A stretch of DNA of 64,000 bases from assembly GCA_964350735.1 (NCBI GenBank), contig CAYGKO010000002.1, positions 155,566-219,565 of the forward strand. The letters are read 5' to 3'. The notes under the pieces are model-generated. The model ran no database searches. It was not told the DNA's origin and saw only the letters and a list, made by a program, of their open reading frames with translations. The translations under genes and the position numbers were made by a program. Within the stretch, counting starts at the first letter, position 1. Each line of letters starts with the position of its first letter. Of this stretch, positions 1 to 16,508 are shown piece by piece. The stretch is from an uncultured Candidatus Saccharibacteria bacterium (GTDB taxonomy: Bacteria > Patescibacteriota > Minisyncoccia > Phycocordibacterales > UBA918).

Positions 1-55
1 CGGCGTAGTCACCTCGCATAATTGCTTCATGTAGCTGTGTATCAGTTGCTTTCAT
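1..55 (-). CDS. Partial CDS (N-terminus only) running off the window start. Hypothetical, probably part of the mobile-element module.
   Basis: Minus-strand ATG at 53-55 (translates MKATDTQLHEAIMRGDYA...) is open to position 1. It overlaps the upstream small ORF by 14 nt, a phage-like compact arrangement. Confidence 0.25.
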   Translation of the reverse strand, partial: MKATDTQLHEAIMRGDYA

Positions 56-224
56 GACTTTTTAAAATAATACCATCTTTGATTGTGTAGCCTTCTTGTA
101 TAAGTCGTTTATGGACTCCTTCAAGCACACTAGATAGTGATCTGATGCTTTCTATAGTATCAGGAGTAAAAAGCCAGTCTCGGCTGGTTTTTGTGTCTGT
201 GATTGTGACCTGAGACTGACTCAT
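42..224 (-). CDS. Small 60-aa hypothetical protein downstream of the primase/helicase. Possibly a DNA-binding or regulatory protein of a mobile element.
   Basis: Six-frame ORF co-directional with and tightly spaced after the 545-aa P-loop protein. No recognisable motif. Confidence 0.3.
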   Translation of the reverse strand: MSQSQVTITDTKTSRDWLFTPDTIESIRSLSSVLEGVHKRLIQEGYTIKDGIILKSHESN

Positions 225-245
225 ACTCCATTAAATGCTGTACGA

Positions 246-1883
246 CTAGATTGTGTCGTACTCAAACTCTTTTGGAGTTTCGATTAGTTGATCTGTCTGA
301 GGATCGCGAGTTCGTTCAACAGCAACCTCAATAGATTCTGTTTCGACATCTGTTGCCGACTGATTGCTAGTGATATGCACTAGACGTTCTGAACCGCTAC
401 GCTGTAAAAAATCTACAGTTACACCAACGGCACTCAGACTGTTCTCAAGCTCCCGCAGACGCTTACTAAGCGCAGAGGGATTGGTGGCAACCGTTTCGTG
501 CCATTCATTGTCGTTTTCTGCTCGCGATTCCTTTAAACCACGCAGAAGATCGGTCATCGTCCCTTCAAAGTCACCGTGTTCTTCAAGGTAATTGAGTAAT
601 GCTCGACCAGCACTGGTTGTGTAAATAGCATCGTATGCACGATTCTTAGAAGCTTTTTCAAGCGCAGACTCAAACGAGATCGCACCGTAACCCAACGCTT
701 CAGCGCAAGCAGCACCCCACAGCGCGAAGTCATTCATTCGGAATGAACTACGATGATTGAGCGTTTCTTTGATATTCATTGCTTGCACAAGAGTGTCAAA
801 GATTGCACCAAGTAGCTGCGGTTTGAGAGCTTCAAATTCTGCATTAATGTCAGCTCCACTACGTACTTCAGATCGAGGTACCGTTTCAGTCTTAAAGAGC
901 ATGATACGGCTCATTAGGTCGCTTTTGCTGGCTTCCACATTTACACCAGTAATGTACGCTGGGTTTTTGATCTTGAGGACAGTGAGACCAGTATCGGTGT
1001 AGAGTGTCCGACGTGCATCCTCACCGCCAGTAGCAACCATGCAGAGCACATCAGACAGATCGTTATCAATCTTGCTGATATTATCGTTCGCAAATACCCA
1101 CGTCTGATTAAGTAGCGTGAGTAAACTGTCTACCTTACGAATTGGCAAAGATACCCCACCAGCAGATGGATCGAGTAGGTCTTTTACCATTCGTAATAGT
1201 GTTGTCTTGGCTGAACCCGCTGGTCCGTGAATATATGTAATCGCTTGGTCAATATCTTGAATCATCCGTACTGGCAAAGTACTCAAGAACAACATCAGTT
1301 CGTCTTGATTCTTGATATTAATTAGCTTTGCTAGATCCTTTAGATCACCACCTGTCACTGGTGTCACCTGAGGTTTCCCGCATCCTTCCTTAAACAAGAA
1401 AGGTACCTTACTGCCCGAGACTACGCTCCAGCCATCTTTTGTAACCTCAACCACTTCACCAGTAGTATTCTGGAGATTATAGTAGATGTTACCGTCTTGT
1501 TGGGCTACGCGGTGATACAGGTCGTGCTGTTTTTCACCGTACTGTGCTTTGGTCGCCAATGTTCCTGAAATTTCTTTCAAGTTTGAGTCACTCACAATCT
1601 CACCCGCTTGTGTATACAAGCGATGACGCAAATGACTGGTAAAGTCAGTACTGGCAATTGGTAAGTTGACTGACTTGTGACCAATACTAATATTGGCGTA
1701 CGGTGTATTGTTTTGGTCTTTAAATAAGACAATGTCACCTGAAGCTAAGATGCTTTTCAGCAACTTAGTCGTCTTGGTTTGACCACTACTTTTGTGGTCA
1801 AGGTTGTTAGTTTTTGATAAACTACTTGTGTTTGAAGCTGCGTCAGTCTCTGTGACTGGCGCTTCTTTGTTTGAACTTTCCAT
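246..1883 (-). CDS. Phage/plasmid primase-helicase-like P-loop NTPase (VapE / D5 / P4-type C-terminal helicase family).
   Basis: Walker A HGPAGSAKTT followed by a hydrophobic strand ending in an acidic residue (LCMVATGGED). The domain order matches virulence-associated protein E / D5-like helicases of integrated elements. No AEP or toprim primase motif was seen in the N-terminal half. Confidence 0.55.
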   Translation of the reverse strand: MESSNKEAPVTETDAASNTSSLSKTNNLDHKSSGQTKTTKLLKSILASGDIVLFKDQNNTPYANISIGHKSVNLPIASTDFTSHLRHRLYTQAGEIVSDSNLKEISGTLATKAQYGEKQHDLYHRVAQQDGNIYYNLQNTTGEVVEVTKDGWSVVSGSKVPFLFKEGCGKPQVTPVTGGDLKDLAKLINIKNQDELMLFLSTLPVRMIQDIDQAITYIHGPAGSAKTTLLRMVKDLLDPSAGGVSLPIRKVDSLLTLLNQTWVFANDNISKIDNDLSDVLCMVATGGEDARRTLYTDTGLTVLKIKNPAYITGVNVEASKSDLMSRIMLFKTETVPRSEVRSGADINAEFEALKPQLLGAIFDTLVQAMNIKETLNHRSSFRMNDFALWGAACAEALGYGAISFESALEKASKNRAYDAIYTTSAGRALLNYLEEHGDFEGTMTDLLRGLKESRAENDNEWHETVATNPSALSKRLRELENSLSAVGVTVDFLQRSGSERLVHITSNQSATDVETESIEVAVERTRDPQTDQLIETPKEFEYDTI

Positions 1884-1957
1884 ATTGATTAGTGGAATGA
1901 AGTTAAACTAATAAAGACATCATTTACTGATGCCTTCGGATTCTATCTTTTTGTCTG

Positions 1958-1975
1958 TTGATCAAATTTGATCAA
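1958..1975. promoter_or_regulatory. Perfect 18-bp palindrome TTGATCAAATTTGATCAA, upstream of the primase-helicase start and overlapping the stop of the preceding gene. Operator-like.
   Basis: The sequence is its own reverse complement. It sits in the 75-nt region just 5' of the minus-strand start at 1883. Confidence 0.4.
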
Positions 1976-3036
1976 CTTTTGATATACATCGGATTGATTT
2001 GCACAGAATGCATACCTTCGAGTAGCAAAAAGTCTTTTATTGTAGTTTTTTCAGCAACCTTCTTGTTTAAAGCAACAGCAGCGTCATATACAGCTCTATT
2101 ACTAAACGCCTCTTCATCACCCCAATCATCAGTAATTTGGTCCTGACTCCACTCATTTGAAGGATTTTTTAGTAATGTTTGAAGTAACATTGAAGGTCTT
2201 GAATCTTTTTTAATATCAAGATCGAGTACGCGACCATCAAAAATTAGCAGCGCCGCATTCACGTCAACACTTAGTGATTTTATGCCAGAAATAACTTCAG
2301 AATAAGTTCCTTTAATTTCGTTATGTAGCAGCAAGAAACCATTTTGATTGAAATATCTAGCAAGGTTAAGTTCACATAACGGATAGTCAAAAGATACAAA
2401 ATCATACTCGTGACAAGCCAATGTTAGTAAAGCTGATATATCTTTTACCTCAGGAGCAATCTGCATATCTTCAATATAGCGAAATGCAAAAAGGGCTATT
2501 AGTGCCTGCATTGAGATTGTCTGTTGTTGTGTGCTGAAATAATCATTTAAATCGGCCAGACTGTCTTTAAAGAAGTCTCCTGTCTGTACTACCACGCCCA
2601 ACCCCACCCATAAATGGTTAGCTTTCTCGTGAAAGTATTTGTCATATTTTCCTTTCAGGTCCTCTTCGCGATTAAAGAGTATATTTGCAACAAAGTGCAA
2701 TAAAGCGTAGCTCGCATGCCCTGATATGAGGTATTCATATGTCGACTCTTGTGCACCATTAAAAACTGAACGAATATCATCAAAGGGTGCTAATTCTTCC
2801 TTTGTAAAATCTATTCCATCAGTCATTTCGGTGTAACACACTAAAGCACCATTTTTAGCTTTATCAATTACACGCTCGACTTCTCTTGATTTTAAAGATG
2901 TCTGTAAATGCTCTGTTGCCGAATCGTTTTTCATCACCAACTTCACATAGGCATGAAGAGCATACAAAAGTTCCTTGCGACCCGTTTCATCAGCATTAAT
3001 TACTGCGTTATACGAATTATCTAAATCTGCTGTCAT
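1972..3036 (-). CDS. Hypothetical protein (354 aa), first gene of the primase-helicase module.
   Basis: Long ORF with no recognisable motifs, co-directional with the primase-helicase. Possibly mobile-element cargo. Confidence 0.4.
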   Translation of the reverse strand: MTADLDNSYNAVINADETGRKELLYALHAYVKLVMKNDSATEHLQTSLKSREVERVIDKAKNGALVCYTEMTDGIDFTKEELAPFDDIRSVFNGAQESTYEYLISGHASYALLHFVANILFNREEDLKGKYDKYFHEKANHLWVGLGVVVQTGDFFKDSLADLNDYFSTQQQTISMQALIALFAFRYIEDMQIAPEVKDISALLTLACHEYDFVSFDYPLCELNLARYFNQNGFLLLHNEIKGTYSEVISGIKSLSVDVNAALLIFDGRVLDLDIKKDSRPSMLLQTLLKNPSNEWSQDQITDDWGDEEAFSNRAVYDAAVALNKKVAEKTTIKDFLLLEGMHSVQINPMYIKS

Positions 3037-3267
3037 TCATGTCATTATAGCTGTTTTAGCTTTGCATAGCATCAACTAAGTTGCTATGATCTAAACACAA
3101 CTTAGTCACCTAACCCCACGTCGTGAGACATGGGCATGGTGCGAATACAAAGTCTCGACAAGAACAAAAAACCCATTGTTAAAGGGGGTCTCTTGTCGAG
3201 CTGTGTCTGGGAAACCAGGTGCATGAGCTTCGGCTCTACCTTTTAGCAGTGGGCTTTTTGTATACCT

Positions 3268-4239
3268 ATGAAAAAAATAATCTTATCTCTATTACTCATC
3301 ACACCAGTCTTTGTTAGTGCAACTGGCTATGACTATCTCCCAGACGATGTCTGGATCAAACAGCAAGAAGAAAAATCAGAACTGGAGTTTCGTTTGCGTC
3401 AGATCGAGGCTGGTATGAGTGGAAATCTAGAAAGCTCACTACGAACCATTGAGTACCGTATCGACGAACTCGAACGAGAACTACAAACGGAAATCGGCTA
3501 TATCAAAGGTCGCTATGGGCAACTTGGTGTTGCTAACCAAATACCATCAGCGGTGGCTAAAGTTAGTTCTGAGTTTGAAGCTGAAATCTCATACCTAGAA
3601 GATGAACGCGACGAGCTAAAGAAGTTCATTCGTGAGGAAGAAGAAGCCCAAGATGCCATCGAGGCACTAGAAGCTCGTATTGCAGAGCTAGAGTCACAAT
3701 CTGTTGCCGAATCAATTCCTGCCTATACACCAACACAAACAATAGTGCGCCCTACTCCTGAAGCAATGTTTGAATACATCGATTCACTTTCACTTTCTGA
3801 AGCCTCTGCTGTATACAATGATCTGCGTCTATGGGACCCCGAGATGTATGAAGATGTGAAATACTTGATTGATCTCACCTATCCTCATGGGAAGCCAGGA
3901 TCCGCTCGTTATGAAGAATATCAAGCGGCTGAACTAGCTGATATTGCTAACTCGATACAATCTCTACAAAGTGAAATCCAGGCTGCGACAGAGCCAAAAA
4001 TAGCTCCTGAGCCGGTATATGTACCTCCAACACAACCAGAGCCTTTGCCTGAACCAGAAGTGACGGAAGAACGGAAAAACCCAGTAGCTACCTCTACTAA
4101 CGAGACGGCAACAACTACAGAGACTTTTAATTTGGAGTCCGAAGAGATATTTACCGAAGAGCCTGAGCCTGTGACACCAGTACAAGCACAACCGGGTTTT
4201 CTCTCCCGGGTGGTGAATTTCTTCAAGAGCTGGTTTTAA
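3268..4239 (+). CDS. Secreted coiled-coil, proline-rich protein.
   Basis: N-terminal signal peptide MKKIILSLLLITPVFVSA. Followed by heptad-like E/L/R-rich segments and a C-terminal PEP/PEPEV proline-rich region. Confidence 0.5.
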   Translation: MKKIILSLLLITPVFVSATGYDYLPDDVWIKQQEEKSELEFRLRQIEAGMSGNLESSLRTIEYRIDELERELQTEIGYIKGRYGQLGVANQIPSAVAKVSSEFEAEISYLEDERDELKKFIREEEEAQDAIEALEARIAELESQSVAESIPAYTPTQTIVRPTPEAMFEYIDSLSLSEASAVYNDLRLWDPEMYEDVKYLIDLTYPHGKPGSARYEEYQAAELADIANSIQSLQSEIQAATEPKIAPEPVYVPPTQPEPLPEPEVTEERKNPVATSTNETATTTETFNLESEEIFTEEPEPVTPVQAQPGFLSRVVNFFKSWF

Positions 4240-4431
4240 ATCAAAATAATCACGGTATTTCAAAACTCGTTTGAAAAAACTACCGGAAATATCAAAATAA
4301 GGGATAAAATACCTTTTATCTGCAACAAGGTCGTGAAATCCAGTTTGATTAATTTGATAAAAGGACAGGTAGAGGGTAGGTCGAAATCAGGTTTATGACA
4401 GGAATGACAGGAATTTTGGTATAATTAGGCT

Positions 4432-5148
4432 ATGGAAATGATTAAAACAAACTCTTTTGAACTGGCAGTACATACTGCCGGAGAACCAAACAGCGAACGA
4501 ATGATGCTCTGTTTGCCAGGTCGACTGGACACTAAAGATTATGCTCACATTCAGAGTCACGTAGAGTACTTTGCCAATAAGGGATTTTTTACCGTAACAT
4601 TTGACCCTCCAGGCACTTGGGAAAGTAGTGACGATATTTCTCTCTACACTACACCAAACTACTTGACTGCCATTCATGAAATTATCGAGCACTTCGGCAA
4701 TCGGCCTACAGTAGCCCTTGGTCATAGCCGTGGCGGCACAATGGCGCTACTTGCAGGAGTACATAACGAGTACGTAACTCACATGGTTGCAGTTATGTCT
4801 CACTGGGGACCAAGTGGACGCCCTGACGTTGAGGGTGATGTGCACGTGTCTACCCGTGATATCCCTCCAGGCACAGAACGTACTGAAGAGCGAAAAACAT
4901 TTGAACTACCAATGAGTTACTTCAACGACTTGGCTGATTACAGTGGACTGGATACATGCGCTAAACCAAAACTGTTCTTTGCTGGCTTAAATGACGTGTT
5001 AATCACCCCTGATGACGTAAAAGAGATGGTTGATGCTTCGGCAGAACCAAAACAGTACCTAGAACTCGACTCAGAGCATGACTACCGACTACATGCTGAT
5101 ATCATTGCTGAAGTAAATGTAAAAGTTGAAGAATTTTTGACTGAGTAA
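4432..5148 (+). CDS. Alpha/beta hydrolase fold esterase/hydrolase.
   Basis: Nucleophile elbow GHSRGG (GxSxG) after a beta-strand, with downstream Asp/His candidates. A sigma70-like promoter lies upstream (TGACAG-18nt-TATAAT near 4395-4423). Confidence 0.6.
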   Translation: MEMIKTNSFELAVHTAGEPNSERMMLCLPGRLDTKDYAHIQSHVEYFANKGFFTVTFDPPGTWESSDDISLYTTPNYLTAIHEIIEHFGNRPTVALGHSRGGTMALLAGVHNEYVTHMVAVMSHWGPSGRPDVEGDVHVSTRDIPPGTERTEERKTFELPMSYFNDLADYSGLDTCAKPKLFFAGLNDVLITPDDVKEMVDASAEPKQYLELDSEHDYRLHADIIAEVNVKVEEFLTE

Positions 5149-5151
5149 TTT

Positions 5152-6021
5152 ATGGAACCTTGGTTTTTATACGTTTGTGCGACTATCGTTTGTAGTGGAC
5201 TAGGTTCATTTCTGCAAAAAGTATCTGCAAAAAATGATCATAATTCAAAAGTAGTTACGATCTTCTCCTTTGTTGTGACTATCCTTGTTGCACCTGCTGT
5301 TTGGTATACTCAAGGAGCTTCTATCGATGGGTGGCAAGTTGCTTTATTCGCAGGTGGATTAGGAGGTATTTTGTACGCACTTTCATACGTCTTGAGAATT
5401 ACCAACCTGCGTTACATCGATACGACGATTTATTTTCCATTGTATAAAACACTCGGTCCACTTCTCGTATTAGTAATTGGTTTACTATATTTTAAAGATA
5501 ATCTCACAACTTTTGACTACTGGGGTATAGGTATTGGGGTACTTGTACCACTAATGCTTCTGAGTAGATCAGAAAAGCATCGGCAGCAAAACCTAACCAA
5601 GGGTTTATTACTGCTTTTACTTACAGCATCAATAACGGCACTAGCATTCGCTACTTCAAAAATTGGAGTTGATAGTGGAGTGAACATTTGGTTGTTTATG
5701 TCCTTGCAAGCAATCGTGGGTATAATCTCTGCACTACTGTTTGCTGTACCAAAATTCAAAAAAGATAAGTTAATGGATTTCACTCTGCATAAGAAAGCAG
5801 TTTGGATTGGATTGTTGCTTGGTCTGATAGATACGCTGAACATTTTCTTTATCCTAATGGCTCTGACTACTGGTCTAGTTTCAGTTGTGTACACAGTGAA
5901 CAGTTTCTACATTCTTATTCCGATCGTGCTTTCAGTCATCTTGTACGGTGAACACATGAATGCACGAAAGGCAGTTGCTATTGGGTTATCAATTGCATCA
6001 GTAATATTTTTCCAAATATAA
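5152..6021 (+). CDS. Polytopic membrane protein, DMT/EamA-like transporter.
   Basis: About 10 hydrophobic helices in a two-fold repeat arrangement. Start lies 4 nt after the hydrolase stop, so it is probably operonic. Confidence 0.45.
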   Translation: MEPWFLYVCATIVCSGLGSFLQKVSAKNDHNSKVVTIFSFVVTILVAPAVWYTQGASIDGWQVALFAGGLGGILYALSYVLRITNLRYIDTTIYFPLYKTLGPLLVLVIGLLYFKDNLTTFDYWGIGIGVLVPLMLLSRSEKHRQQNLTKGLLLLLLTASITALAFATSKIGVDSGVNIWLFMSLQAIVGIISALLFAVPKFKKDKLMDFTLHKKAVWIGLLLGLIDTLNIFFILMALTTGLVSVVYTVNSFYILIPIVLSVILYGEHMNARKAVAIGLSIASVIFFQI

Positions 6022-6032
6022 AAGCAACTCGG

Positions 6033-9000
6033 TTGAATAAATGCTATATAACTACACAAAAGCCTATTATGCTAAAGGACACAATCATAAATATAGTTTC
6101 ACCGGATGAGTTTGAGAATCTTTGCCAACAAATACTTGTTGCAGAGTTTCCAGACTTCGAGGTAATTGATGACAGCTCAGGTGACGGTGGTAATGATGGC
6201 TATAGTGCTAGTGAAAAAACACTTTGGCAGCTTTACTGTCCTAAAAAAGATAATTTGTCGATAAAGGAGCAAAGAGAGCGATACCAGGCAAAGATCAGAA
6301 CCGACTTGGCTAAGGCAGCAAAACTTAAGAGCGAAAAAGGGTACGAGATAGATAGATGGATTTTTACAACAACAAAACCACTTACAGAAGAATTACACAC
6401 TTATCTAAGGAATAAAGCCGGGGATTACGGCTTTGCCTGTTCAGTGTGGTCGTCAAAAAAACTAAATGAGTTGCTGTCAAAACACTCACATGTACAGGAT
6501 TTGTTTCCAGACTTAGTTTTAGCAAAAACTCACGAGCTGGTTGAGGAAGTTAAGGCAAACCAAAAAAGTGTTGCCGACTCAGAAGCAAAAGGAAAACAAA
6601 CTCTCAATTCCGCGTTTAAGAAAAGAATTGACGAGGCCAGAGATCGGTTAAATGTTGGCAATGCCGCAAGCGCAAAGGAGTCATACATGAGAATCTTGGA
6701 TGACATGAGTGAATATCCGTCTGAGATAGATCAGCATCTACTCTTCAGAGCAAAGAATAACCTAGGAAATGCTGAACAGATTCTCGGGAATTACCCAGAG
6801 GCTGTCAGATTATTCAGAGAAGCTTTTGAGCACGATCCAAATAATAAGGTTGCGATACTGAATCAGGCATTAGCATTAACACTCGAAGAAAAGTATGAAG
6901 AAGCATTAGGCTATCTAGAAACTATTTCTGCTGACTACGGTACTGATAATCACTACATTGTTATCAGATGCAATACTCTCAAAATGCTCGGTAGATATTC
7001 AGATTTATACGAATATTTAGGACCTCTGTCCAAACCAAAATTACTTTTAACATACAGGGCTTTTGAACAACAAGACGCAGGAAATTCAAAAGAGGCCCTT
7101 CATTTTTTTGAAGAGGTTTTAAAAATTGAGCGTGGCAATCAAGAAGCTCTTGAAGGTGCCACCCACTCCGTTTTATTTGGTTATAAAGATGATTTGCGTA
7201 ACGGAACTTTGCCTGAATACATGTTGAAGCCAGAGCTGCGTGAAATATTCCAAAAGACTGAGTCATGGATCAAACAGTTAATTGAAATATACAAATTCAA
7301 TAACGAGACTCAAAAGATTGAGGCGGGCTACACAAACCTGGCAGCAGCACAGTTAGCTTTGTCTGACTATCAAACAGCACTCAGATCGGCTCAAAAAGCG
7401 CTCGACTATGACGCTACTTCAATGGTTGCGTGGCAAAACAAAGGTATATGTGAACTGAAACTAAATAACTACAAAGATTGTCTACACAGCCTAAAACAAT
7501 TCGTTGTTTACGGGGGTGTTGAAGCTGCCGTAGCTCCTGTGCTGGCTATGTGTGCACGAGAGATCAATGATCATGATCTGACTATTGAATACGGTGAAAA
7601 ATATTTGCATGTTGATGGAACTATAGATATTGAGATGGCAGAAATTCTAATTGGCGTTTATGCGAACGATCTTAATACGGAGAAAGTTGAGCGAATTCTA
7701 AACGAACTTAAGGACTCTCACCCAGATGATAGTTCAGCGAATAGAGTAATTGGAAATTTTTATAGCAAGCGAGGTTTAGACGACGCTTTATCTCACTTAG
7801 AGAAAGCTATAGCTAAAGCACAAAACCCAACAGATAAAATGATGGCTGAAGTAGCGCTTGCTGACCACCATTTTAAGAGCAGTGACTATAACAAAGCAGC
7901 TGATTTATACGAAAAATATATTGATAAAGATGAAGCACGTTTTGTAACAATAAAATACTTACGCTCTCTTTATCGAGCTGGTAAATATGGTCAGTTATTG
8001 AAAGAGGTGTCAGAGTTCGGTGACAGCGCTAAAAACATTGAGCAGGTTTTAGAGCTTGAAGCACATGCAAATCTAACATTGCAAAACATTGAAATTGCAG
8101 CCAGAAAGTTTAAAAAACTTTATACCAATACCGGAAATACGGACTACGTTATTAATTATGGGTTATGCGAAATTAGACAAAAGAACACCGACAAAGCAAA
8201 AAGCGCTTATGATGCTGCAAGGTCACAAGCTAAAGACATTAACGACTGGATGTCGTTAGCACATGGCTACACCGCGTTAGGTGACTGGGCCTCAGCAATT
8301 GACTTGGTTCATAAAAGCTACGAACAAGACCCTAATGACCCAGAAATAATGAAGTCTTATATATGGATATTTCTATTTTCTGAACAAGCTAGTGATATTG
8401 AAAGTAACGAGAAGCATGTGAAAACATTTCAAGAAATCAGTGTTAAATACGGTGAAAGGTTTCCTGATCAAGAAGACTTGCGAAGCATAAAGATTCAAGG
8501 TGATGATGTGACACCTATTTTAGAGATGATTAAATCTGTCTCGGAAAACGCTCAGCAGGCCCAAACCTTTTACTCAGAATCAAAAGCACCACTGTCCTTT
8601 ATTCCAAACATGACTGGCAGAAGTCCACTGGTTGTTTGGAATGCTTTTACTGCTGACAGTCAAACTGGTATTCAGTCAAATTTTGGGAGCGAAGACGAGA
8701 CAGTGTACGAACAAAAAACACTGAAAGAAACATCAAACCTACAGACTGTTATTGATATATACCCGATTCTGTTACTGCACCGAACAGGCTTCTTAGAAGA
8801 GGTTCTGGGTAATTTTAAAAAAGTTTACATCCACCAAAGCGTCCTTGATAACCTTAATGCTTCAATTAATGACGAACGGCTCGCTTTGAAAAACGGACAA
8901 GAAACTATCGGTTACAACAATGGCCAGTTTGTGATGACTGAGATGAGTGTTGAACAAATCTCGAAATCAGTCGAAAATGTAGAGACATTAATTGAAAAAA

Positions 9001-9626
9001 TTAAATCGTTACCAAATGTTGAAATAAGAGGCTTTGAGTCTGAAACTGATAACGTCGAGACTGATTTTCTCAATAAGCTTCATACCACGACAAGAAGTTC
9101 AGCATATCTAGCTAAGCAACTAGGCATACCGTTTTATACAGACGACAAGATAGTGCGTGCTGTCCTTAAGTCTGATGAAGTATATTCTTTCTCAACATAT
9201 GGCCTACTAACCCACCTTGCGTCTGAAGGTAAGATCACGGACGACCATTACCATTCACTTCACAAGCAAATGCTTGAGTTGGGCTACACATACGTACCTA
9301 TTAATGCCAAAATGATTTTTTATGAGCTGGTCAAAGAGATGAGTATCGAATCAATCGAAATTTATGCCAGAAACATCGCAAAACCTGAAACCACATTACC
9401 TTCAGTAACAGTTGTCTTGAGTGAGTTACTACTCTTTCTCTTAGCTGAAACTGCGATTCCAAACTCTACAAAAAAACAAGCTTTTCAGAGAATGTTGTCA
9501 GAGATAAAAGAAAATCACGATGTGCAAAATATAAGAGAAGGTATATCGTTGATTCTTGGAAAAAATTTAGACAGCACACAAAAAGTCTTTGTAGACCAAT
9601 TACTCGATACTCTTATTGGAAGGTAG
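6033..9626 (+). CDS. Large multidomain protein (1197 aa). N-terminal Mrr-like PD-(D/E)xK restriction-endonuclease domain, a long TPR-repeat array, and a C-terminal domain with PIN-like acidic motifs.
   Basis: The N-terminus FENLCQQILVAEFPDFEVIDDSSGDGGNDG ... LWQLYCPKK ... RWIFTTTKPLTEEL matches the Mrr_cat pattern (FExl..ll..mGy.v ..gDgGiD .. vQcKry .. ifvTt). Many 34-residue A/L/Y/N-rich repeats span roughly residues 200-800. The C-terminal region has VIDIYPILLL and FYTDDKIV acidic motifs. Confidence 0.6.
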   Translation: MNKCYITTQKPIMLKDTIINIVSPDEFENLCQQILVAEFPDFEVIDDSSGDGGNDGYSASEKTLWQLYCPKKDNLSIKEQRERYQAKIRTDLAKAAKLKSEKGYEIDRWIFTTTKPLTEELHTYLRNKAGDYGFACSVWSSKKLNELLSKHSHVQDLFPDLVLAKTHELVEEVKANQKSVADSEAKGKQTLNSAFKKRIDEARDRLNVGNAASAKESYMRILDDMSEYPSEIDQHLLFRAKNNLGNAEQILGNYPEAVRLFREAFEHDPNNKVAILNQALALTLEEKYEEALGYLETISADYGTDNHYIVIRCNTLKMLGRYSDLYEYLGPLSKPKLLLTYRAFEQQDAGNSKEALHFFEEVLKIERGNQEALEGATHSVLFGYKDDLRNGTLPEYMLKPELREIFQKTESWIKQLIEIYKFNNETQKIEAGYTNLAAAQLALSDYQTALRSAQKALDYDATSMVAWQNKGICELKLNNYKDCLHSLKQFVVYGGVEAAVAPVLAMCAREINDHDLTIEYGEKYLHVDGTIDIEMAEILIGVYANDLNTEKVERILNELKDSHPDDSSANRVIGNFYSKRGLDDALSHLEKAIAKAQNPTDKMMAEVALADHHFKSSDYNKAADLYEKYIDKDEARFVTIKYLRSLYRAGKYGQLLKEVSEFGDSAKNIEQVLELEAHANLTLQNIEIAARKFKKLYTNTGNTDYVINYGLCEIRQKNTDKAKSAYDAARSQAKDINDWMSLAHGYTALGDWASAIDLVHKSYEQDPNDPEIMKSYIWIFLFSEQASDIESNEKHVKTFQEISVKYGERFPDQEDLRSIKIQGDDVTPILEMIKSVSENAQQAQTFYSESKAPLSFIPNMTGRSPLVVWNAFTADSQTGIQSNFGSEDETVYEQKTLKETSNLQTVIDIYPILLLHRTGFLEEVLGNFKKVYIHQSVLDNLNASINDERLALKNGQETIGYNNGQFVMTEMSVEQISKSVENVETLIEKIKSLPNVEIRGFESETDNVETDFLNKLHTTTRSSAYLAKQLGIPFYTDDKIVRAVLKSDEVYSFSTYGLLTHLASEGKITDDHYHSLHKQMLELGYTYVPINAKMIFYELVKEMSIESIEIYARNIAKPETTLPSVTVVLSELLLFLLAETAIPNSTKKQAFQRMLSEIKENHDVQNIREGISLILGKNLDSTQKVFVDQLLDTLIGR

Positions 9627-9858
9627 AACAACTTTTCACTTTGATTTATTTTGAAAACTAGTCGCAAAAAATATACGAAGTAAAAATTCTTAGAAAGTTT
9701 GGAAAATGGGGGTTGTTGCTATATGACACTAGTGACAGACTAACTCAAATTTCTAACTGAGAGAGTGAAAATATTGTTGATTTGATGTATTCAGTGCTTT
9801 CCCCAAGTTCGGAAAGCCAGTATAATGGGTCACCAAAGGGGTCACACGACCCAATTAG

Positions 9859-9887
9859 AAAAAACCGCCAGAAATGGCGGTTTTTTC
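9859..9887. terminator. Bidirectional rho-independent terminator.
   Basis: A-run, then stem ACCGCCA, loop GAAA, stem TGGCGGT, then T6. It sits after the 1197-aa gene and ahead of the minus-strand RAYT. Confidence 0.5.
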
Positions 9888-10087
9888 TGTAGGCACTTTA
9901 TCGAAATGCATTCACCCTCGCAGGGTCCCGAACTTTTCAGTTCTGGTCTCGCTGATGTCGTCCCCCCAGTTTTCAGGGTCCGTGACCCAAGGTCAAGAAT
10001 TGTCTCGCTCCATACGACGGTAGACGCGTTTGATCAGTTCAAGATGGCGACGCAGATGTTCATCTTTGTTCATAAGGTTCGATTTAC

Positions 10088-10866
10088 GGGGAAATGGTGT
10101 CAGCGGGGAAATGGTGTCAGGGGAAATGGTGTCAGGTACCTTTTATCGGCCTCCCTCTCCCTCGTACCGTCATGCTCAGCTTGTGTCTATCAATCATAGT
10201 GTCTGACCATACATCAGAGCCAAAGGGCTTCCCCTTATTCACCGCATTTCTAGCAGCTTCTAGTTCTGCTGCTGTCAGGGGTAACTGGAGAAAATCTAAG
10301 TAGTTGTTTGGCAATGAAACCGGAGGTGAAGATACTATCGTACTTTTAATGGTATGGAGTCTTTGGTATGCACTGGAATACTTCCAGTTCTGAATATTTT
10401 TAACTAGCTTCGCCCGCAGCGGGTTTCTTTCAACGTAGCGAATGACTGTTAAGAGGTGCTGATCTTGCTGAATTAAAAAAGATTTGTATCTTCCTTGGTA
10501 CAAGGAACCTGAACCAATAGTTTTATTCTGTACATGCCATCGCTGTGTATGAGTGAGCGTGAGCCATTGCATGAACTTCTGTAGATCACCATCTTTTCTT
10601 GGGTGAAGCACGAGATGAAAATGATTAGGCATAATACAATACGCCAATACACGCATGTCGTATTTTTCAACACCATCCTCTAGAATAGACTCAAAGAGTT
10701 TGAAATCTTCTTCTTTGAAGAAGATTTGTAGCCTTGCATTAGCCCTATTAATGATGTGATAGATTTCACCTCCAATATCTACTCTTGGTACCCTTCCCAT
10801 ATGTTACTATAGTAACATAAAAGGTACCTGACACCATTTCTGCTGACACCATTTCTGACATTTCTG
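10088..10866. mobile_element. REP-flanked RAYT / IS200-IS605-like element. A Y1 transposase gene is bracketed by multi-copy inverted GAAATGGTGTCAG repeats.
   Basis: Left end has 3 tandem copies of GGGGAAATGGTGTCAG (10088-10135). Right end has 2+ inverted copies of CTGACACCATTTC (10828-10866). The terminal 18-mers GAAATGGTGTCAGGTACC (10123-10140) and GGTACCTGACACCATTTC (10823-10840) are perfect reverse complements. Confidence 0.65.
10132..10800 (-). CDS. tnpA: HuH-Y1 transposase (REP-associated tyrosine transposase / IS200-like TnpA, COG1943 type).
   Basis: HuH motif MPNHFHLVL and catalytic-Tyr motif YVERNPLRA. N-terminal R.PR...GEIYHIINRANARLQIFFKEEDF matches the RAYT N-terminal pattern. Confidence 0.75.
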   Translation of the reverse strand: MGRVPRVDIGGEIYHIINRANARLQIFFKEEDFKLFESILEDGVEKYDMRVLAYCIMPNHFHLVLHPRKDGDLQKFMQWLTLTHTQRWHVQNKTIGSGSLYQGRYKSFLIQQDQHLLTVIRYVERNPLRAKLVKNIQNWKYSSAYQRLHTIKSTIVSSPPVSLPNNYLDFLQLPLTAAELEAARNAVNKGKPFGSDVWSDTMIDRHKLSMTVRGRGRPIKGT

Positions 10867-10965
10867 CACTCAATTCTTCCCACAACATTAGTTTCCATCC
10901 TTAATTAATGACAGAACGGTTGATGGTGCAAAGCTATGCAGAACTAAGAAAACATCGCACATTCA

Positions 10966-11697
10966 TTAATTGAGCAACCTCATAGTATCTCCATAAATTA
11001 CTTCATTGGCAGCTCCAATAAATACCCTATCGTTTGGACTGATATTAATCTTGCCTTCTCTATTTGTAGATAAGCCGCCTGATTCATTTATGATAAAAGT
11101 TCCAGCAAAGTAAGGGAAACTATCTTTAGTAATGCTCACTATCCGACGATATCTTCCTTGCGCAACACGACAATATGAAAGCACGCTTGATTGATTTAAA
11201 ACAAATGGATATAGGCTGCTTGAAGATTGCCAAACGTGCTTTTGGAGTTCTGCTTGGTCTGAACCGGGGTCCATATTAAGGATTAAATCACCGATTGATC
11301 TCACCTTTTCCATGTGCTTATCATTATAAATAACCCCCTGTCCTTTCTTGGCTTCAAAAAACTCATTATGTGCAGGAGCAACTACTAAAGCATAAATGAT
11401 TTCGCCTTTGTTAACCTCAGCCACACACAGTGCATACTCTGCTGTGCCAGCATATAACTGATTAGTTCCGCTTATTGGGTCTATGACCCAATAAGTGTCT
11501 TTGCCTGGATCCATATTATTAATATCCTCACCGTATATGATTGGGTCGTTGATTTCTTTAGAAAGTAGACTGAAAAAATCACTCTCTATATTTTCCTCAA
11601 TCTTTTTAAGTCCGTCTTCTGTCGTATCCTCAGGTAAATGACTCAAAATTTTCTTTCCTTGATCTATAAGAAAGTCTTTTACGGCTACATAGTTCAT
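10966..11697 (-). CDS. Inositol monophosphatase / CysQ family phosphatase.
   Basis: Signature WVIDPISGTNQ (the WxIDPIDGT metal-binding motif of the IMPase/FBPase superfamily). Confidence 0.6.
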   Translation of the reverse strand: MNYVAVKDFLIDQGKKILSHLPEDTTEDGLKKIEENIESDFFSLLSKEINDPIIYGEDINNMDPGKDTYWVIDPISGTNQLYAGTAEYALCVAEVNKGEIIYALVVAPAHNEFFEAKKGQGVIYNDKHMEKVRSIGDLILNMDPGSDQAELQKHVWQSSSSLYPFVLNQSSVLSYCRVAQGRYRRIVSITKDSFPYFAGTFIINESGGLSTNREGKINISPNDRVFIGAANEVIYGDTMRLLN

Positions 11698-11748
11698 ACG
11701 GTAATAATTGATTAGTAATGAATCTTATACAGTATAATATATTTAATT

Positions 11749-13152
11749 ATGAAAAAAATATGCCTAGTTGGCTTCGGTCCGCACGCTAAACGCATTCACT
11801 ACCGATATATAAAAGAAGGAGTGTCCTCCGAGAAGGTTCAATTTTCTTCCTTGGTGGATCTCATAGAAAAAAATGATGACATAAACACTTTCTTTTTAAC
11901 AGAAACGTGTTTGCCAAAAAATATATTTCTATCAAGGGATTCAGACCAAAGAGTGCCTGACAAATTAGCTGATGATGTTAAATTATTCTTGGACCAACAA
12001 ATTAGTCAGGGAGAAATTAACTGCGCAATTATCTCAACTGAACCTAAGGCACATAAAATATACATCGAGTATTTTATTTCCCGCGGTATTCCTGTGTTAA
12101 CAGACAAACCACTCACTGCCCCAGTTGGTTTAGTCCATAACCAATTGCAGGCTGAAAAGATTTATACCGATACTCTACAACTACAGGCATTGAGCGAAGC
12201 AAACAAAACTCCAATTTATGTACTATCACAAAGAAGAGAGCATGACGCGTATAAACATATCTTCAATTTAGCAGCTCAATGTGTTGCTGAATTTGGCATA
12301 CCAATTACATATTTTGATATCTTTCATAGCGACGGAACTTGGTCCATGCCTGGAGAATTCTACTCACGCGAAAACCATCCCTACAAGTACGGTTACGGTA
12401 AACTAATGCACTCAGGGTATCACTTTGTTGATTTGGCAGCCTGGGTAGCAGAAGTTAATGCGAATATTTATCCAAACCTACAAATTACTAACACTACTGA
12501 ATTACTCAGTCCACAGATGCAATATGAGCAGATTAACGGCTCGCAGAATTACGAGAGATTCTTTGGTAAATTAACAAATAGCCCGCAACCAGAAGGACTA
12601 GGTGAGGTTGATAGTTATACGACTATCAAAATGCACGTTCCTGGTGAAGACCCAGCTTCAACAAAACACATCTCCCTTGGTAGACTAGATCTACTTCAGT
12701 CTGGTTTCTCACGCCGAGCATGGTTTGATTTAGCGGCAGATACCTACAAAGGAAACGGTAGAATACGTCACGAGAGAATCACCATGCACCTTGGTCCTTT
12801 AATGGCTATTCACGTTCACTCTTATCAGTCTGATCAGGTTGGCAAAACAAACATCGAGGGAGTCGGTGGCGAAGAACATTTAGATGTATACGTATTTAGA
12901 AATGACCAACTGATTGGCGGACGTGGTTTTGAGCGCTTAAATTTTGGTCAAATCATACATTCACGCCATCAGTCAGAATCTACCTACATAGGTCAAAATG
13001 AGATTTCAAGGTGGAAGATTTTCCAGCAATTTATCACCGATGAAAAAAGTGACGCTTTAATTGAAAATCAACTTGTAACAAACAAATTATTGAATAGTAT
13101 GTATATATCGGCGATTACCAAGAAATCACACAATATTAAATATAATGACTAG
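11749..13152 (+). CDS. Gfo/Idh/MocA-like NAD(P)-dependent oxidoreductase.
   Basis: N-terminal Rossmann start KICLVGFGPHAKR. Family EKP-like motif GIPVLTDKPL. 467 aa with a long C-terminal domain. Confidence 0.45.
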   Translation: MKKICLVGFGPHAKRIHYRYIKEGVSSEKVQFSSLVDLIEKNDDINTFFLTETCLPKNIFLSRDSDQRVPDKLADDVKLFLDQQISQGEINCAIISTEPKAHKIYIEYFISRGIPVLTDKPLTAPVGLVHNQLQAEKIYTDTLQLQALSEANKTPIYVLSQRREHDAYKHIFNLAAQCVAEFGIPITYFDIFHSDGTWSMPGEFYSRENHPYKYGYGKLMHSGYHFVDLAAWVAEVNANIYPNLQITNTTELLSPQMQYEQINGSQNYERFFGKLTNSPQPEGLGEVDSYTTIKMHVPGEDPASTKHISLGRLDLLQSGFSRRAWFDLAADTYKGNGRIRHERITMHLGPLMAIHVHSYQSDQVGKTNIEGVGGEEHLDVYVFRNDQLIGGRGFERLNFGQIIHSRHQSESTYIGQNEISRWKIFQQFITDEKSDALIENQLVTNKLLNSMYISAITKKSHNIKYND

Positions 13153-13591
13153 TATGACTGAATTAATAAAAGGAAGAAAAGTTCAAGGTATTATTTATTA
13201 TAAGAACCAAGCCGGGGGGTTAAGTATATTGGGTCTACATCGAACCCCAGAAGAAGGAGGTTTTTGGCAACCTTTGACAGGCACAGTAGAAGAAGGTGAA
13301 TCATACCAAGAATGCTTGATGCGTGAACTGCAAGAAGAGACGGGTATTACAAGTAATCAAATAATTAAAATTGATGGTCCTATAAATACCTTTGAATGGA
13401 GTCGGGATAATACTCTTTACGAGGAACATGTGTACTCTGTTGAGGTCTCTTCAGAAACCCAGGTACGATTATCAGAAGAACATGATGAATACAAGTGGGT
13501 TACACCAGATGAAACTAAAGTAATGTTTAAATTTCAAGAAATAAAAGACGGGATTGATATTTTAAATGGAAAAGAATCAAAAACAAACTGA
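13145..13591 (+). CDS. NUDIX hydrolase.
   Basis: Nudix box GTVEEGESYQECLMRELQEETGI (Gx5Ex7REuxEExGu). Confidence 0.7.
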   Translation: MTSMTELIKGRKVQGIIYYKNQAGGLSILGLHRTPEEGGFWQPLTGTVEEGESYQECLMRELQEETGITSNQIIKIDGPINTFEWSRDNTLYEEHVYSVEVSSETQVRLSEEHDEYKWVTPDETKVMFKFQEIKDGIDILNGKESKTN

Positions 13592-14495
13592 GGTAAAAAA
13601 CAAAATAGCTACCGTTCTAAAAAATGAACTCGGGTGGGCTATCGAAGTTTCAGAACTAAAACCTACAACGGATAGTTTTGCAAACTACGTCTTCTTTTTC
13701 TCTTTTAACAATGAGACGTTTTACGCAAAGTATTTTCCTTCGGTATTTAAGGACAATGAAAGTATCGACAAACCAGAAGGTTCATTTTTAAGAGAGGTTA
13801 CTATTTATGAATTTTTAAATAAAAGTAACTACAAAATAGCTCCCGAATTCATTTTCAGGTCACAAAATGAACCGATTTTAATTACTAAATCATGGGGATC
13901 TAGTAACTTTTTACCAAAGTTAAATTCGCTGACACAGGAAGAAGTTCTAAACCAAATTACTTGCGTAATCAGCAAAGCTGTTTTGTTCCGATCCTGTCTG
14001 AGAGACAGTCAAGTACAATTAACTCTTGGTGATCAACTCAATGTCTTTTCAAGACTGCAAGAGCAGTATCTTATACATAAACCTTTACAACATTTAGGTT
14101 TATCTGCTGATGATGTTGACAATTTTGAAGACAATTATTTATTAATACAGAAAGATTTAGCCATTGGTGACCTGTCTCTAAAAAATATCCTGGCGGAAGA
14201 TTCTGATGTGAGATTTTGTGATTTTGAATCAGTATTTTTAGCACCATTAGTATTCGACATATGTTATTTAACCGCTGATTTATTAAGTAAAATGCCTCTA
14301 CTGAACGATGAAGAATTGCTTAAAAAAATATTCTTTTCATGTACGCAAAATTTGAGTCCTCAAGAAAGAGCCATGTTCTTCCCTCTGGTGTCAGTATGCA
14401 TGAGCTATCGCACCAAAAATGCCGTAAAATCATTTTCAACTAAGGAGTGGTCACAAAGTCTTTTGCAGACTATATTTCACACCAGAATGCCTTAA
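13566..14495 (+). CDS. Kinase-like phosphotransferase (aminoglycoside/choline/sugar kinase APH family).
   Basis: Catalytic-loop and DFG-like motifs AIGDLSLKNIL ... VRFCDFES, matching hGDlhpgNil / viDfe of the APH family. Confidence 0.55.
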   Translation: MEKNQKQTEVKNKIATVLKNELGWAIEVSELKPTTDSFANYVFFFSFNNETFYAKYFPSVFKDNESIDKPEGSFLREVTIYEFLNKSNYKIAPEFIFRSQNEPILITKSWGSSNFLPKLNSLTQEEVLNQITCVISKAVLFRSCLRDSQVQLTLGDQLNVFSRLQEQYLIHKPLQHLGLSADDVDNFEDNYLLIQKDLAIGDLSLKNILAEDSDVRFCDFESVFLAPLVFDICYLTADLLSKMPLLNDEELLKKIFFSCTQNLSPQERAMFFPLVSVCMSYRTKNAVKSFSTKEWSQSLLQTIFHTRMP

Positions 14496-14509
14496 GGTAT
14501 ACTTAATTC

Positions 14510-15427
14510 ATGCAACTAGAAAAAATTACTAATTTTCTGGAGGACTTCTTTTCAATAAAGACGTTCCCTAAAGATCCTCAGATGAGCTTATTTGTTCCGA
14601 TGGTTTATGAAAATGTAAATTTCAATTATGAAGAAGTATTCGAGCAAGACTTCAACTCTAGATTTGATGGTTTAATGTTGAAAGGGGGTGATGAAGTAAA
14701 TAATATTTATCTAGCAACCTTCCCTACTCCTGATGTTCTCGAATCTTTTTTCTCTATAGCTCAACCTGGAGATATTTTCTTCAGCCATCATCCTATTTAC
14801 ATTGAGAATGGTGACCCCGAAGGAGAAATTGGTCGTGGATGGATGGCGCTGACAGCTGAACAAATAAATACGTTCAAGAAAAATAATTTGTCTTATTTCT
14901 CTTGCCACAGTCCTATGGACTACCACCTGCGAATAGGTACTAGAGCTGCAATGATTGATGCGCTTAATTGCATATATCTTGCTGATTTTTTTAATGACGG
15001 CACAGGTCCGCACGGCTTAATTGGAATTATACCCACCTGCACAACTGAACTAATGTCAGAAAAATTAATGACGGTATTTAATGTTCCTTATCTTGACTTA
15101 GTGGGTACGAGTAAATCTAAAACAATTAGTAAGGTTGCCCTAATTGCCGGCGGGGCTGACAATGTTGACTACATGATGAAAGCTGAGGCCTTAGGGGTAG
15201 ATGCCTATATATGTGGTGAATTTAACTCTCGTTTTAACACCCCTTGGGGTATCGAAAATCAAAAGAAAGTTAACGAGTTTCTAGAAAATTCAAGTATGGC
15301 ATTTTTTGGAGTCTCGCATGCTGCCTGTGAAAATCTCACCTTCAAGACTCAACTAAGAGTTTTCTTTGCATCGAATTTCCCCGGTGTTAATATTCATTTA
15401 TTAGAGCAGAAGAAATGGTGGTTTTAA
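14510..15427 (+). CDS. Nif3 family (DUF34, YbgI-like) dinuclear-metal protein.
   Basis: Conserved His clusters align with E. coli YbgI: FFSHHPIYI (VIVHHGYFW), SCHSPMDYH (GWHLPLDAH), IAGGADNVDYMMKAEALGVDAYICGE (CTGGGQSFIDSAARFGVDAFITGE), GVSHAACE (AAGHHATE). Confidence 0.7.
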   Translation: MQLEKITNFLEDFFSIKTFPKDPQMSLFVPMVYENVNFNYEEVFEQDFNSRFDGLMLKGGDEVNNIYLATFPTPDVLESFFSIAQPGDIFFSHHPIYIENGDPEGEIGRGWMALTAEQINTFKKNNLSYFSCHSPMDYHLRIGTRAAMIDALNCIYLADFFNDGTGPHGLIGIIPTCTTELMSEKLMTVFNVPYLDLVGTSKSKTISKVALIAGGADNVDYMMKAEALGVDAYICGEFNSRFNTPWGIENQKKVNEFLENSSMAFFGVSHAACENLTFKTQLRVFFASNFPGVNIHLLEQKKWWF

Positions 15428-15434
15428 ATACTGT

Positions 15435-16169
15435 ATGTCAGAAAAAGCACCTAGAATAGCGACCATTGGCTTTGAGGGTCCTAATAGAGTCGGTAAATCA
15501 ACACAGAGTGAACTGTTAAAAACTCATCTTGAGAAACATGGTATTCCAGTAGTAATTGTGCGTGGTGACGGTTCTAGGTCTGGTCAAGGTGACAGTTTTG
15601 GTAATCCCGAATCGGATACGTGGAAAGAAATTGATTCAAACCTACGTAATGAAGGAGCCAATCTTGAAGAATGGAACAAATCTTCATATCGTATCGCTCG
15701 GGAGTTACTAGTGTGGAGAGATAGAGTGCTACCAAATTTTGTTAGAGAACTTGAGTCACAAGCTGGAGTTTTACTAATAGATAGATCTCTTCTAGCTCGC
15801 ACCTTAGTACCTCGAGAAATGGGGACCCCTAAACGTCTTTATGATGAAGACATGAGACCAGAGAATCCGATAACGGGCGATAAAAAAGGTCGCTCAATTA
15901 CTGCTGGAGATGTCGCTCCAGATATAATTGTGCAATTTATTGCCCCGAAAGATACACTAATTTCTCGTTTAGGAGATGGGCAGGATGAGAAGAGTCAACT
16001 CCGAAGACGATTACTTGAAGAACGTTATGATTGGTACCTTGATGCACAAAATTACTTACCTGAGGGATTAACTGACCGAATTGTAAGAATTGATGCCACT
16101 GGAGATCCTGAAGAAGTCTTTGACATTGTACTAAAAACACTAGTCGAAAGGGGTTTGATACCAAAATAG
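15435..16169 (+). CDS. P-loop nucleoside-monophosphate kinase, thymidylate-kinase-like.
   Basis: IGFEGPNRVGKSTQ resembles Tmk fEGidGaGKsTq. A later LID-like DRSLLA segment is present. Confidence 0.5.
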   Translation: MSEKAPRIATIGFEGPNRVGKSTQSELLKTHLEKHGIPVVIVRGDGSRSGQGDSFGNPESDTWKEIDSNLRNEGANLEEWNKSSYRIARELLVWRDRVLPNFVRELESQAGVLLIDRSLLARTLVPREMGTPKRLYDEDMRPENPITGDKKGRSITAGDVAPDIIVQFIAPKDTLISRLGDGQDEKSQLRRRLLEERYDWYLDAQNYLPEGLTDRIVRIDATGDPEEVFDIVLKTLVERGLIPK

Positions 16170-16332
16170 TTACAGTCTACTGTAACAAAGTAACATGCAT
16201 GAATATGTGTCACTTTTGTCACTTTTTTAGATGCACGAGAAGGGTCGCAGATTCTAAATTTCAAACTTCATAAAAGCCTTACCTCATAAGGAATCAAAGA
16301 GGTTCTATCTGCTGAACGCTCACAAAATACAG

Positions 16333-16369
16333 AAAAGAGCCTGTCAAGTTTATTTGGCAGGCCTTTTCT
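16333..16369. terminator. Bidirectional terminator between convergent genes.
   Basis: AAAAGA, stem GCCTGTCAA, loop GTTTATT, stem TTGGCAGGC, then CTTTTCT. Confidence 0.45.
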
Positions 16370-16373
16370 ATGC

Positions 16374-16500
16374 GTGATCCCACGAGTAAACAGTCTGGGA
16401 GACTGTTTACGACGGAATCGAAGAGGTTGCCTGCGATTCTGGAAGAATCGTGACAACCTGTACTGATCCTGTAAGGATCGAATTTCCCCGTGGGATCACA
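16374..16500. other. Highly structured 127-nt intergenic element. An 11-bp long-range helix encloses three internal hairpins. Could be a complex terminator or an unassigned small RNA.
   Basis: GTGATCCCACG (16374-16384) pairs with CGTGGGATCAC (16490-16500). The internal hairpins are AAACAGTC-TGGGA-GACTGTTT, CGATTC-TGGAA-GAATCG and GATCC-TGTAA-GGATC. Confidence 0.25.
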
Positions 16501-16508
16501 ACACAAAA

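Follow-up and report, generated by a model that had tools for sequence, protein, structure and literature searches.

What kind of DNA lies at the left edge of the 64,000-nucleotide stretch analysed here (contig CAYGKO010000002.1, positions 155,566 to 219,565; hereafter, the window), and is it whole or a remnant? We propose that positions 1-16501, together with ~1.6 kb further to the left, very probably form one integrative element of ~18.1 kb that has entered a tRNA-Glu gene at its 3' end; the bacterium that carries it probably belongs to the Patescibacteria (Candidate Phyla Radiation, CPR). An earlier interpretation made from the letters alone, the sequence-only reading, had placed the window's start inside an integrated element or satellite-like island and had called it a mobile-element remnant whose integrase and attachment (att) site would lie off to the left. 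Its central claim holds, as both an integrase and a tRNA-Glu att site are found leftward, and the open reading frames (ORFs) of 545, 354 and 60 aa on the minus strand and the unique 18-bp palindrome that it listed are all in place (Table 1). The word remnant is not supported: the island looks complete, with four intact core genes and both junctions identifiable.

Both ends of the island

The left boundary was reached on an independent contig. An exact-protein look-up returned L001 (loci compared with the window carry L numbers), an 18,108-bp contig from run ERR3534985 that has the same genes and reaches 1,626 nt past the window edge. Its terminal sequence, GTGATCCCACGGGGAATCGAACCCCGA, matches, in reverse complement, the acceptor 3' strand and the T-arm in the tRNA-Glu genes of L016 and L022, and the end of the contig falls within the antisense T-arm. 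From this end and the relatives, the proximal att site is placed at the tRNA-Glu 3' end, ~1.6 kb left of the window.

At the opposite end, an 18-nt direct repeat of the tRNA-Glu 3' end is identical to the end of L001 at 18/18 positions; the chance expectation for such a repeat in 64 kb is ~2e-6. It emerged from reading positions 16100-16560, and patterns of 20-25 nt taken from relatives gave no match to tRNA-Glu fragments in the window. Just 8 nt separate the repeat from the stop codon of the chromosomal gene for RNase H, and the housekeeping side continues with genes for a His-phosphatase, SnoaL, a MurE-like ligase, a penicillin-binding protein (PBP), RsmH and MraZ. The last four are 50-74% identical to genes adjoining tRNA-Glu in L002, a Paceibacterota metagenome-assembled genome (MAG), and in L022. 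GC content stays at 0.37-0.43 as far as ~16 kb, with 0.37-0.41 across the cargo genes, and steps up to 0.42-0.50 from there on. A chromosomal contig of the same run ERR3534985, L157, spans the RNase H side of the right junction and overlaps L001 by 30 nt; therefore, the junction is not an assembly artefact of the window. The window holds 16.5 kb of the ~18.1-kb island.

A large serine recombinase that crosses the att core

The integrase expected to the left is a large serine recombinase. Its gene starts at position 55 and continues on L001 (11829-13508) as an ORF of at least 560 codons with Pfam matches to Resolvase (PF00239, 1.3e-14) and Recombinase (PF07508, 4.8e-11). The sequence-only reading had seen two small overlapping ORFs here; the 60-aa ORF is real, but the second one is the 5' end of this recombinase gene, cut by the window edge. 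A full-length relative on the 155-kb contig L022 encodes a 571-aa recombinase (11859-13574) with the same two domains, and its gene overlaps tRNA-Glu (13513-13585). The Zn-ribbon family PF13408 gives no match for the recombinase of this island, whose sequence has CAAC...C-x3-C; the relatives in L146 and L154 match Zn_ribbon_recom.

A recombinase search with one genome per species returned 17 loci, and the hosts were fifteen Patescibacteria/CPR MAGs, one unclassified bacterial MAG, one Taibaiella and one Dokdonia. In 12 of the 17 loci, the recombinase gene shares its last ~20-60 nt with a tRNA gene encoded on the other strand (10 tRNA-Glu, tRNA-Gln in L014 and tRNA-Asn in L015), a count in which short contigs of the L003/L012 type were not judgeable. 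Three loci found otherwise have the same overlap, with tRNA-Glu in L022, tRNA-Tyr in L021 and tRNA-Ala in L146, the latter two being more distant elements. The recombinase ORF runs across the att core into the antisense tRNA (L001 13440-13509; L022 13500-13574 and 5100-5190); therefore, its last ~20 codons are chromosomal (antisense tRNA) in the integrated state and element-derived in the excised state. The recombinase would have two alternative C-termini, one for each state.

In 12 related loci, a homologue of the 60-aa protein is encoded immediately before the recombinase. The protein has no family match in Pfam, PHROGs, NCBIfam or PADLOC and is a putative recombinase accessory or directionality factor.

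LOOT RNA at the boundary of core and cargo

The 230-nt region between the 354-aa gene and a divergent 323-aa gene is more conserved as DNA than the proteins on either side. It carries a LOOT RNA and, before it, a promoter-like sequence (Table 1), for which a promoter scan gives an overlapping version at 3061-3090 (TTTGCA-18-TATGAT, 9/12 matches, TG before the -10 hexamer). LOOT is reportedly described in Weinberg et al. 2017, and Rfam types RF03000 as a small RNA (sRNA). Its genomic context is not given in the literature that we searched, the coverage of which was incomplete.

Among the related loci, LOOT scores 65-81 bits in L002 (twice), L003, L004, L005, L008, L010, L013, L016 and L021, with 77.5 bits for the L002 copy that is homologous to the one in the window, and a model built in this analysis finds it also in L019, L022 and L023. 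It is present in 12 of the 13 CPR loci with at least 3.5 kb upstream of the recombinase. The reverse search agrees: all 12 metagenome loci picked by a LOOT sequence pattern were confirmed by the covariance model, and those with enough flanking DNA have a large serine recombinase in 4 of 4 cases. Compensatory changes across 11 copies affect 23 of 29 LOOT pairs. A loose LOOT pattern gave at least 120 matches in IMG/VR, and of the 80 loci listed, the covariance model accepted none as LOOT, a result that has little bearing on LOOT in viral contigs.

In nearly all cases, transcription of LOOT leads away from the core operon, and the RNA sits at the core/cargo boundary. In the loci inspected, the next gene follows within ~90 nt, often within 35 nt, and mostly encodes a hydrophobic N-terminus resembling a membrane segment or signal peptide; in L004 and L013 a large unannotated gene follows. 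Further downstream in L155 and L156 lie genes resembling type I restriction-modification systems, judged by sequence only. LOOT is apparently tied to one family of mobile elements at one fixed position.

In the window, the gene after LOOT encodes a 323-aa protein that is probably secreted, judging from its N-terminus. Its matches to PspA, Rad50 and SMC are weak coiled-coil matches far below cut-offs (E 2.5e-4 to 3.5e-3), and a homologue with 56% identity occupies the same position in L002.

A D5-type helicase without a primase domain

The 545-aa protein had been described as a VapE/D5-like primase-helicase. Its profile matches stay at the level of the Walker A motif (ABC_tran, E 1.1e-3; AAA_22, E 5e-3), with nothing better in PHROGs, NCBIfam or PADLOC. 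In the fold, a D5N-like domain is joined to a superfamily 3 (SF3) ATPase core, as in D5/VapE-type primase-helicases, and the best structural match is the primase-helicase of the Staphylococcus aureus pathogenicity island SaPI5 (7OLA); SaPIbov1 Rep (8TCH) and the VapE-like PriRep1 match too. The helicase part of the earlier description thus stands, but the primase part does not. Homologues with 46-57% identity measure ~750 aa and carry Prim-Pol at the N-terminus, one of them also PriCT_1, and the window protein aligns just to the part that follows PriCT_1; a further homologue, 30% identical, carries a DnaG zinc finger. In the homologue alignment, the Walker A residues G220 and K226 never vary, and D267 hardly does. 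Judged by its fold, the 545-aa protein is a D5-type SF3 helicase lacking the primase domain, and ATP-dependent hexameric helicase activity is predicted for it.

For the homologues, the Joint Genome Institute (JGI) label "EcfA2 ABC ATPase" was considered and rejected on fold.

A family of related islands

L002, L016, L019 and L022 share the core gene order of the window. More widely, the pair of small protein and serine recombinase is conserved and the replication gene is exchangeable. The SF3 helicase stands by itself in the window, L002, L016, L019 and L022; L021 has Prim-Pol and PriCT_1 in front of the same helicase, L146 has Prim-Pol, PriCT_1 and AAA_25, L156 has a primase and a DnaB-like helicase, and other loci have unknown proteins in this place. 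Two different serine-recombinase elements, each with its own LOOT, lie in tandem at one tRNA-Glu in L002 (1-11121).

A phage connection appears in L021 (5890-7766), where a gene for a head maturation protease (phrog_53, 3.9e-51) is followed by a 326-aa gene without a match, which might encode a capsid protein. Some family members may be phage-like or satellites. Could the island in the window itself be a satellite of the type of SaPIs and phage-inducible chromosomal islands (PICIs) that relies on a helper phage of its host for packaging? In favour are its small size, a divergent regulatory region, a helicase that is structurally closest to that of SaPI5 and also matches SaPIbov1 Rep and PriRep1, and a relative, L021, with a head gene. 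However, the scanned proteins of the island include no terminase, no capsid protein and no factor for capsid-size redirection, its integrase belongs to the serine and not to the tyrosine recombinases, and the sole IMG/VR match of the helicase family is just 29% identical. We regard a helper-packaged satellite as quite improbable, and the earlier term satellite-like finds no packaging or capsid gene in this island to lean on.

The 354-aa protein and the palindrome

The 354-aa protein, previously called an orphan, has very few relatives over its full length (64% identity in L019/L022, 27% in L002), and a family profile, used as a third homologue search, returned 3 proteins only. It is not a complete orphan, given its C-terminal ~100 residues, which recur at the C-terminus of 181 protein clusters. 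No family was found in Pfam, PHROGs, NCBIfam or PADLOC profile searches, where the set of 545-, 354- and 60-aa proteins gave P-loop noise only, and a PDB profile search found nothing. Trans_reg_C (PF00486) matches weakly (14.3 bits against a gathering score of 26.2, E 0.045) and is weak in 3 of 46 homologues. The AlphaFold2 model is clearer, with a predicted local distance difference test (pLDDT) score of 88-95 for the C-terminal domain. DSSP assigns to residues 255-347 an N-terminal beta-sheet, three helices and a C-terminal beta-hairpin wing, as in PhoB/OmpR effector domains. With this domain, Foldseek retrieves PhoB, ToxR, YycF, ArlR and PrrA at probability ~1 and target template modelling (TM) scores of 0.57-0.67 (PhoB 1QQI 0.64, ArlR 0.66 and YycF 0.64, at probability 1.0); full-length response regulators score lower.

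A TATAAT box (3037-3047, minus strand) ends 5 nt (GACAT) before the ATG of this gene and is conserved in L019 and L002. So short a spacing makes it improbable that the transcript has a 5' leader of the usual kind, including a ribosome-binding site; it may have no leader, or almost none.

The palindrome occurs once in the window, and 100 shuffles gave 0 matches at up to 2 mismatches. It overlaps the stop codon of the 354-aa gene, ends 74 nt upstream of the helicase ATG and is identical in L019, L022 and L023. In L002, the 354-aa homologue of which has diverged to the 27% identity given above, the same position holds a different perfect palindrome, TGGTCAACGTTGACCA, with the changes mirrored in both halves; a dyad-symmetric binding site is therefore favoured. 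We infer that the 354-aa winged-helix protein may bind this site. The divergent promoter region holds no other TTGATCAA-like sites; therefore, autoregulation there is unsupported.

The sequence-only reading had named the palindrome an operator, which is one candidate role. Two other functions of the palindrome need to be considered. It is possible, though we think it rather unlikely, that it is a replication origin or part of one, bound by the C-terminal domain of the helicase or by the 354-aa protein, and not a transcriptional operator. Two identical 8-mers one helical turn apart are iteron-like, and self-loading helicases of the D5/SaPI type bind origins near their own genes, as established for SaPI Rep, which counts for this reading. 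Yet there are two repeats only, no adjacent AT-rich unwinding block was noted, and a site within the operon, upstream of a terminator hairpin, suits read-through regulation. That the palindrome is a mere intrinsic terminator or a chance hairpin is very unlikely. The scan does list it as a plus-strand terminator-like element followed by TTTTGATATA, but the plus strand has no gene upstream of it, L002 lacks the T run yet keeps the dyad by paired changes, and a separate conserved terminator hairpin follows on the coding strand. Binding by the winged-helix protein is the simplest account of the site.

Cargo genes and a folded module at the att core

The cargo spans ~12 kb. One of its proteins, of 1197 aa (6033-9626, plus strand), combines TPR repeats with a PIN domain of the "TPR-GreAB-C-PIN" type (PF20698, 1.9e-18) and is likely to act in conflict or defence. 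The relatives L019/L022 have a PIN/DUF4411 protein beside a weakly M78-like peptidase. The IS200-like Y1 transposase gene (10132-10800, minus strand; PF01797, 3.4e-17) overlaps the end of a 124-aa ORF on the opposite strand.

Between the cargo and the RNase H gene, the distal att core takes part in a cloverleaf-like module (Table 1). The segment 16374-16499 folds with a minimum free energy of -57.8 kcal/mol (z -7.1) and has no Rfam match. A non-homologous module of the same design lies between recombinase and tRNA in L009 (3021-3165, z -8.9), and similar modules in L016 (11752-11875) and L002 (11385-11515) are built on the tRNA 5' end. These modules measure 125-145 nt, have 2-3 near-perfect hairpins and z values of -4.6 to -8.9 against shuffles, and share no sequence homology.

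Table 1. Positions of island features in the window and of LOOT RNA in related loci
Feature	Locus	Position	Strand	Remarks
Large serine recombinase, first 18 codons	window	1-55	-	ATG at 55; ORF leaves the window, ~1.6 kb more to the left
60-aa protein	window	42-224	-	3' end overlaps recombinase start by 14 nt
Predicted D5-type SF3 replicative helicase, 545 aa, without primase domain	window	246-1883	-	contains HGPAGSAKTT and LCMVATGGED
Terminator-like hairpin, then TTTATT	window	1913-1937	-	between 354-aa and helicase genes; from scan; stem kept by compensatory changes in L002
18-bp perfect palindrome TTGATCAAATTTGATCAA	window	1958-1975		two TTGATCAA units 10 bp apart; candidate protein-binding site
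354-aa protein	window	1972-3036	-	all-alpha N-terminal part, C-terminal PhoB/OmpR-like winged helix; putative regulator or initiator
Promoter-like TTGCAT-17-TATGAT	window	3062-3090	+	read from the sequence; ends 16 nt upstream of LOOT
LOOT RNA (Rfam RF03000)	window	3107-3237	+	49.5 bits, gathering score 46.4 (small margin); E 1.4e-8 on the local region
323-aa protein	window	3268-4239	+	first gene after LOOT; hydrophobic signal-peptide-like N-terminus (by eye)
Cargo genes (Pfam)	window	4432-16169		alpha/beta hydrolase, EamA transporter, 1197-aa TPR+PIN protein, IS200-like Y1 transposase, inositol-monophosphatase-like, GFO/IDH/MocA-like, NUDIX, NIF3, sub-threshold thymidylate-kinase P-loop protein
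Cloverleaf-like module	window	16374-16499		11-bp closing stem of att core and its inverted copy; encloses three near-perfect hairpins
Distal att junction TTCCCCGTGGGATCACAA	window	16484-16501	+	18-nt direct repeat of the tRNA-Glu 3' end
LOOT RNA	L002	1174-1304, 8959-9084
LOOT RNA	L003	6393-6519
LOOT RNA	L004	5843-5969
LOOT RNA	L008	5217-5334
LOOT RNA	L010	7891-8005
LOOT RNA	L013	5866-5991
LOOT RNA	L016	7082-7213
LOOT RNA	L021	7814-7945
LOOT RNA	L022	8685-8814

Discussion

We propose the following working of the island. The core would be a minus-strand operon of the 354-aa protein, the dyad site with the terminator-like hairpin, the helicase, the 60-aa protein and the recombinase, from which LOOT would be transcribed divergently, leading into the 323-aa gene and the cargo. 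The recombinase would integrate a circular form at the tRNA end and excise it again, probably assisted by the 60-aa protein. On the excised circle, the helicase would load and drive replication, with primers supplied by the host, since a primase domain is missing from this copy. The winged-helix protein would bind the palindrome at the end of its own gene, and this could either gate read-through into the helicase and integrase genes or mark an origin. LOOT may serve, either as a leader or as a small RNA, in switching between core and cargo.

A further proposal is tentative, and we would not call it likely: LOOT might be a core functional part of a widespread, undescribed serine-recombinase family of the Patescibacteria, serving as an immunity/switch or replication RNA, and the att-core cloverleaf might be a tRNA-mimicking recombination or regulatory structure. 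If this were true, the family would have its own RNA-based layer of control, along with an integrase C-terminus that changes between the integrated and the excised state.

Several points weigh against our interpretation. No empty site or excised circle was found, only same-sample contigs being recovered. The left junction falls outside the window, and L001 breaks off within the tRNA. tRNA-Glu and the division and cell wall (dcw) gene cluster are arranged differently from the relatives, in which tRNA-Glu directly follows the cluster and dcw is at the integrase end; here dcw is at the cargo end. Profile scans of the island proteins found no primase, relaxase, packaging or capsid genes in this island. 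For the 545-aa protein, the profile search that the sequence-only reading had proposed gave no Pfam match to VirE (PF05272), D5_N or a primase at E <= 0.01. The N-terminal 250 residues of the 354-aa protein are poorly modelled, and what speaks for palindrome binding is its position and one co-varying relative.

Some of these points would also suit a decayed remnant or a domesticated island that is no longer mobile. Protein scans found no genes for a primase, for transfer or for packaging, the island contains metabolic genes and an IS200-like transposase, and neither a circle nor an empty site was seen. However, none of the four core ORFs is interrupted, their identity to the L019/L022 counterparts is 64-83%, the Walker A residues are invariant, and the two att copies agree in every position. 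Visible decay looks different in this family: the recombinase is split in L147 and in L002, where the inner copy is split at about codon 93, unlike the intact copy of this island. We consider loss of mobility unlikely and retain the reading of a complete integrative element.

Two further ideas were given up. An inversion model for the dcw placement was dropped because the att repeat directly abuts the RNase H gene. Excision could not be read from Logan contig breaks, as these lie 1-30 nt from the junctions and misfit a simple attP/attB branching model.

The genomes of Patescibacteria are tiny, and gene exchange among these bacteria is little understood. The family described here is a recognisable and apparently common vehicle of such exchange: its serine integrase targets a tRNA, its replication gene is exchangeable, and its cargo includes defence and surface-protein genes. 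It gives LOOT a fixed and testable genomic context, and its compact tRNA-targeting serine integrases may serve as tools for organisms that are hard to manipulate.

Comparison with known systems

Self-replicating integrative islands that target tRNA genes are a known kind of element; the present variant appears to be undescribed. Our literature search, of incomplete coverage, found no description of the family. It is set apart by its host phylum, its exclusive use of large serine recombinases with an ORF crossing the att core, the fixed LOOT and the att-core cloverleaf.

Tycheposons of Prochlorococcus are tRNA-inserting cargo elements of roughly similar size (bioRxiv 10.1101/2020.12.28.424599, Hackl et al.). 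They have a site-specific integrase, which is a large serine recombinase in a minority, a primase/helicase, including the VirE type, and niche or defence cargo (10.1101/2020.12.28.424599). The islands described here belong to a different host phylum, and their integrase is always a large serine recombinase crossing the att core; the island in the window, moreover, has LOOT at the core/cargo boundary and no primase. With SaPIs and PICIs it shares the helicase fold and the layout of a small integrated island with divergent regulatory genes, an integrase and a replication module. SaPIs, however, have tyrosine integrases, packaging and interference genes and helper-dependent induction, none of which were found here. 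Large serine recombinases are also known from phiC31/Bxb1-type prophages and from the ccr genes of the staphylococcal cassette chromosome mec (SCCmec) with its Cch helicase (5DGK); here, in contrast, the target is a tRNA 3' end lying antisense to the last stretch of the recombinase ORF, CPR bacteria are the hosts, and the element carries a LOOT RNA. This RNA agrees with Rfam LOOT RF03000 in sequence and structure, with a match above the gathering score and covariation in the collected copies.

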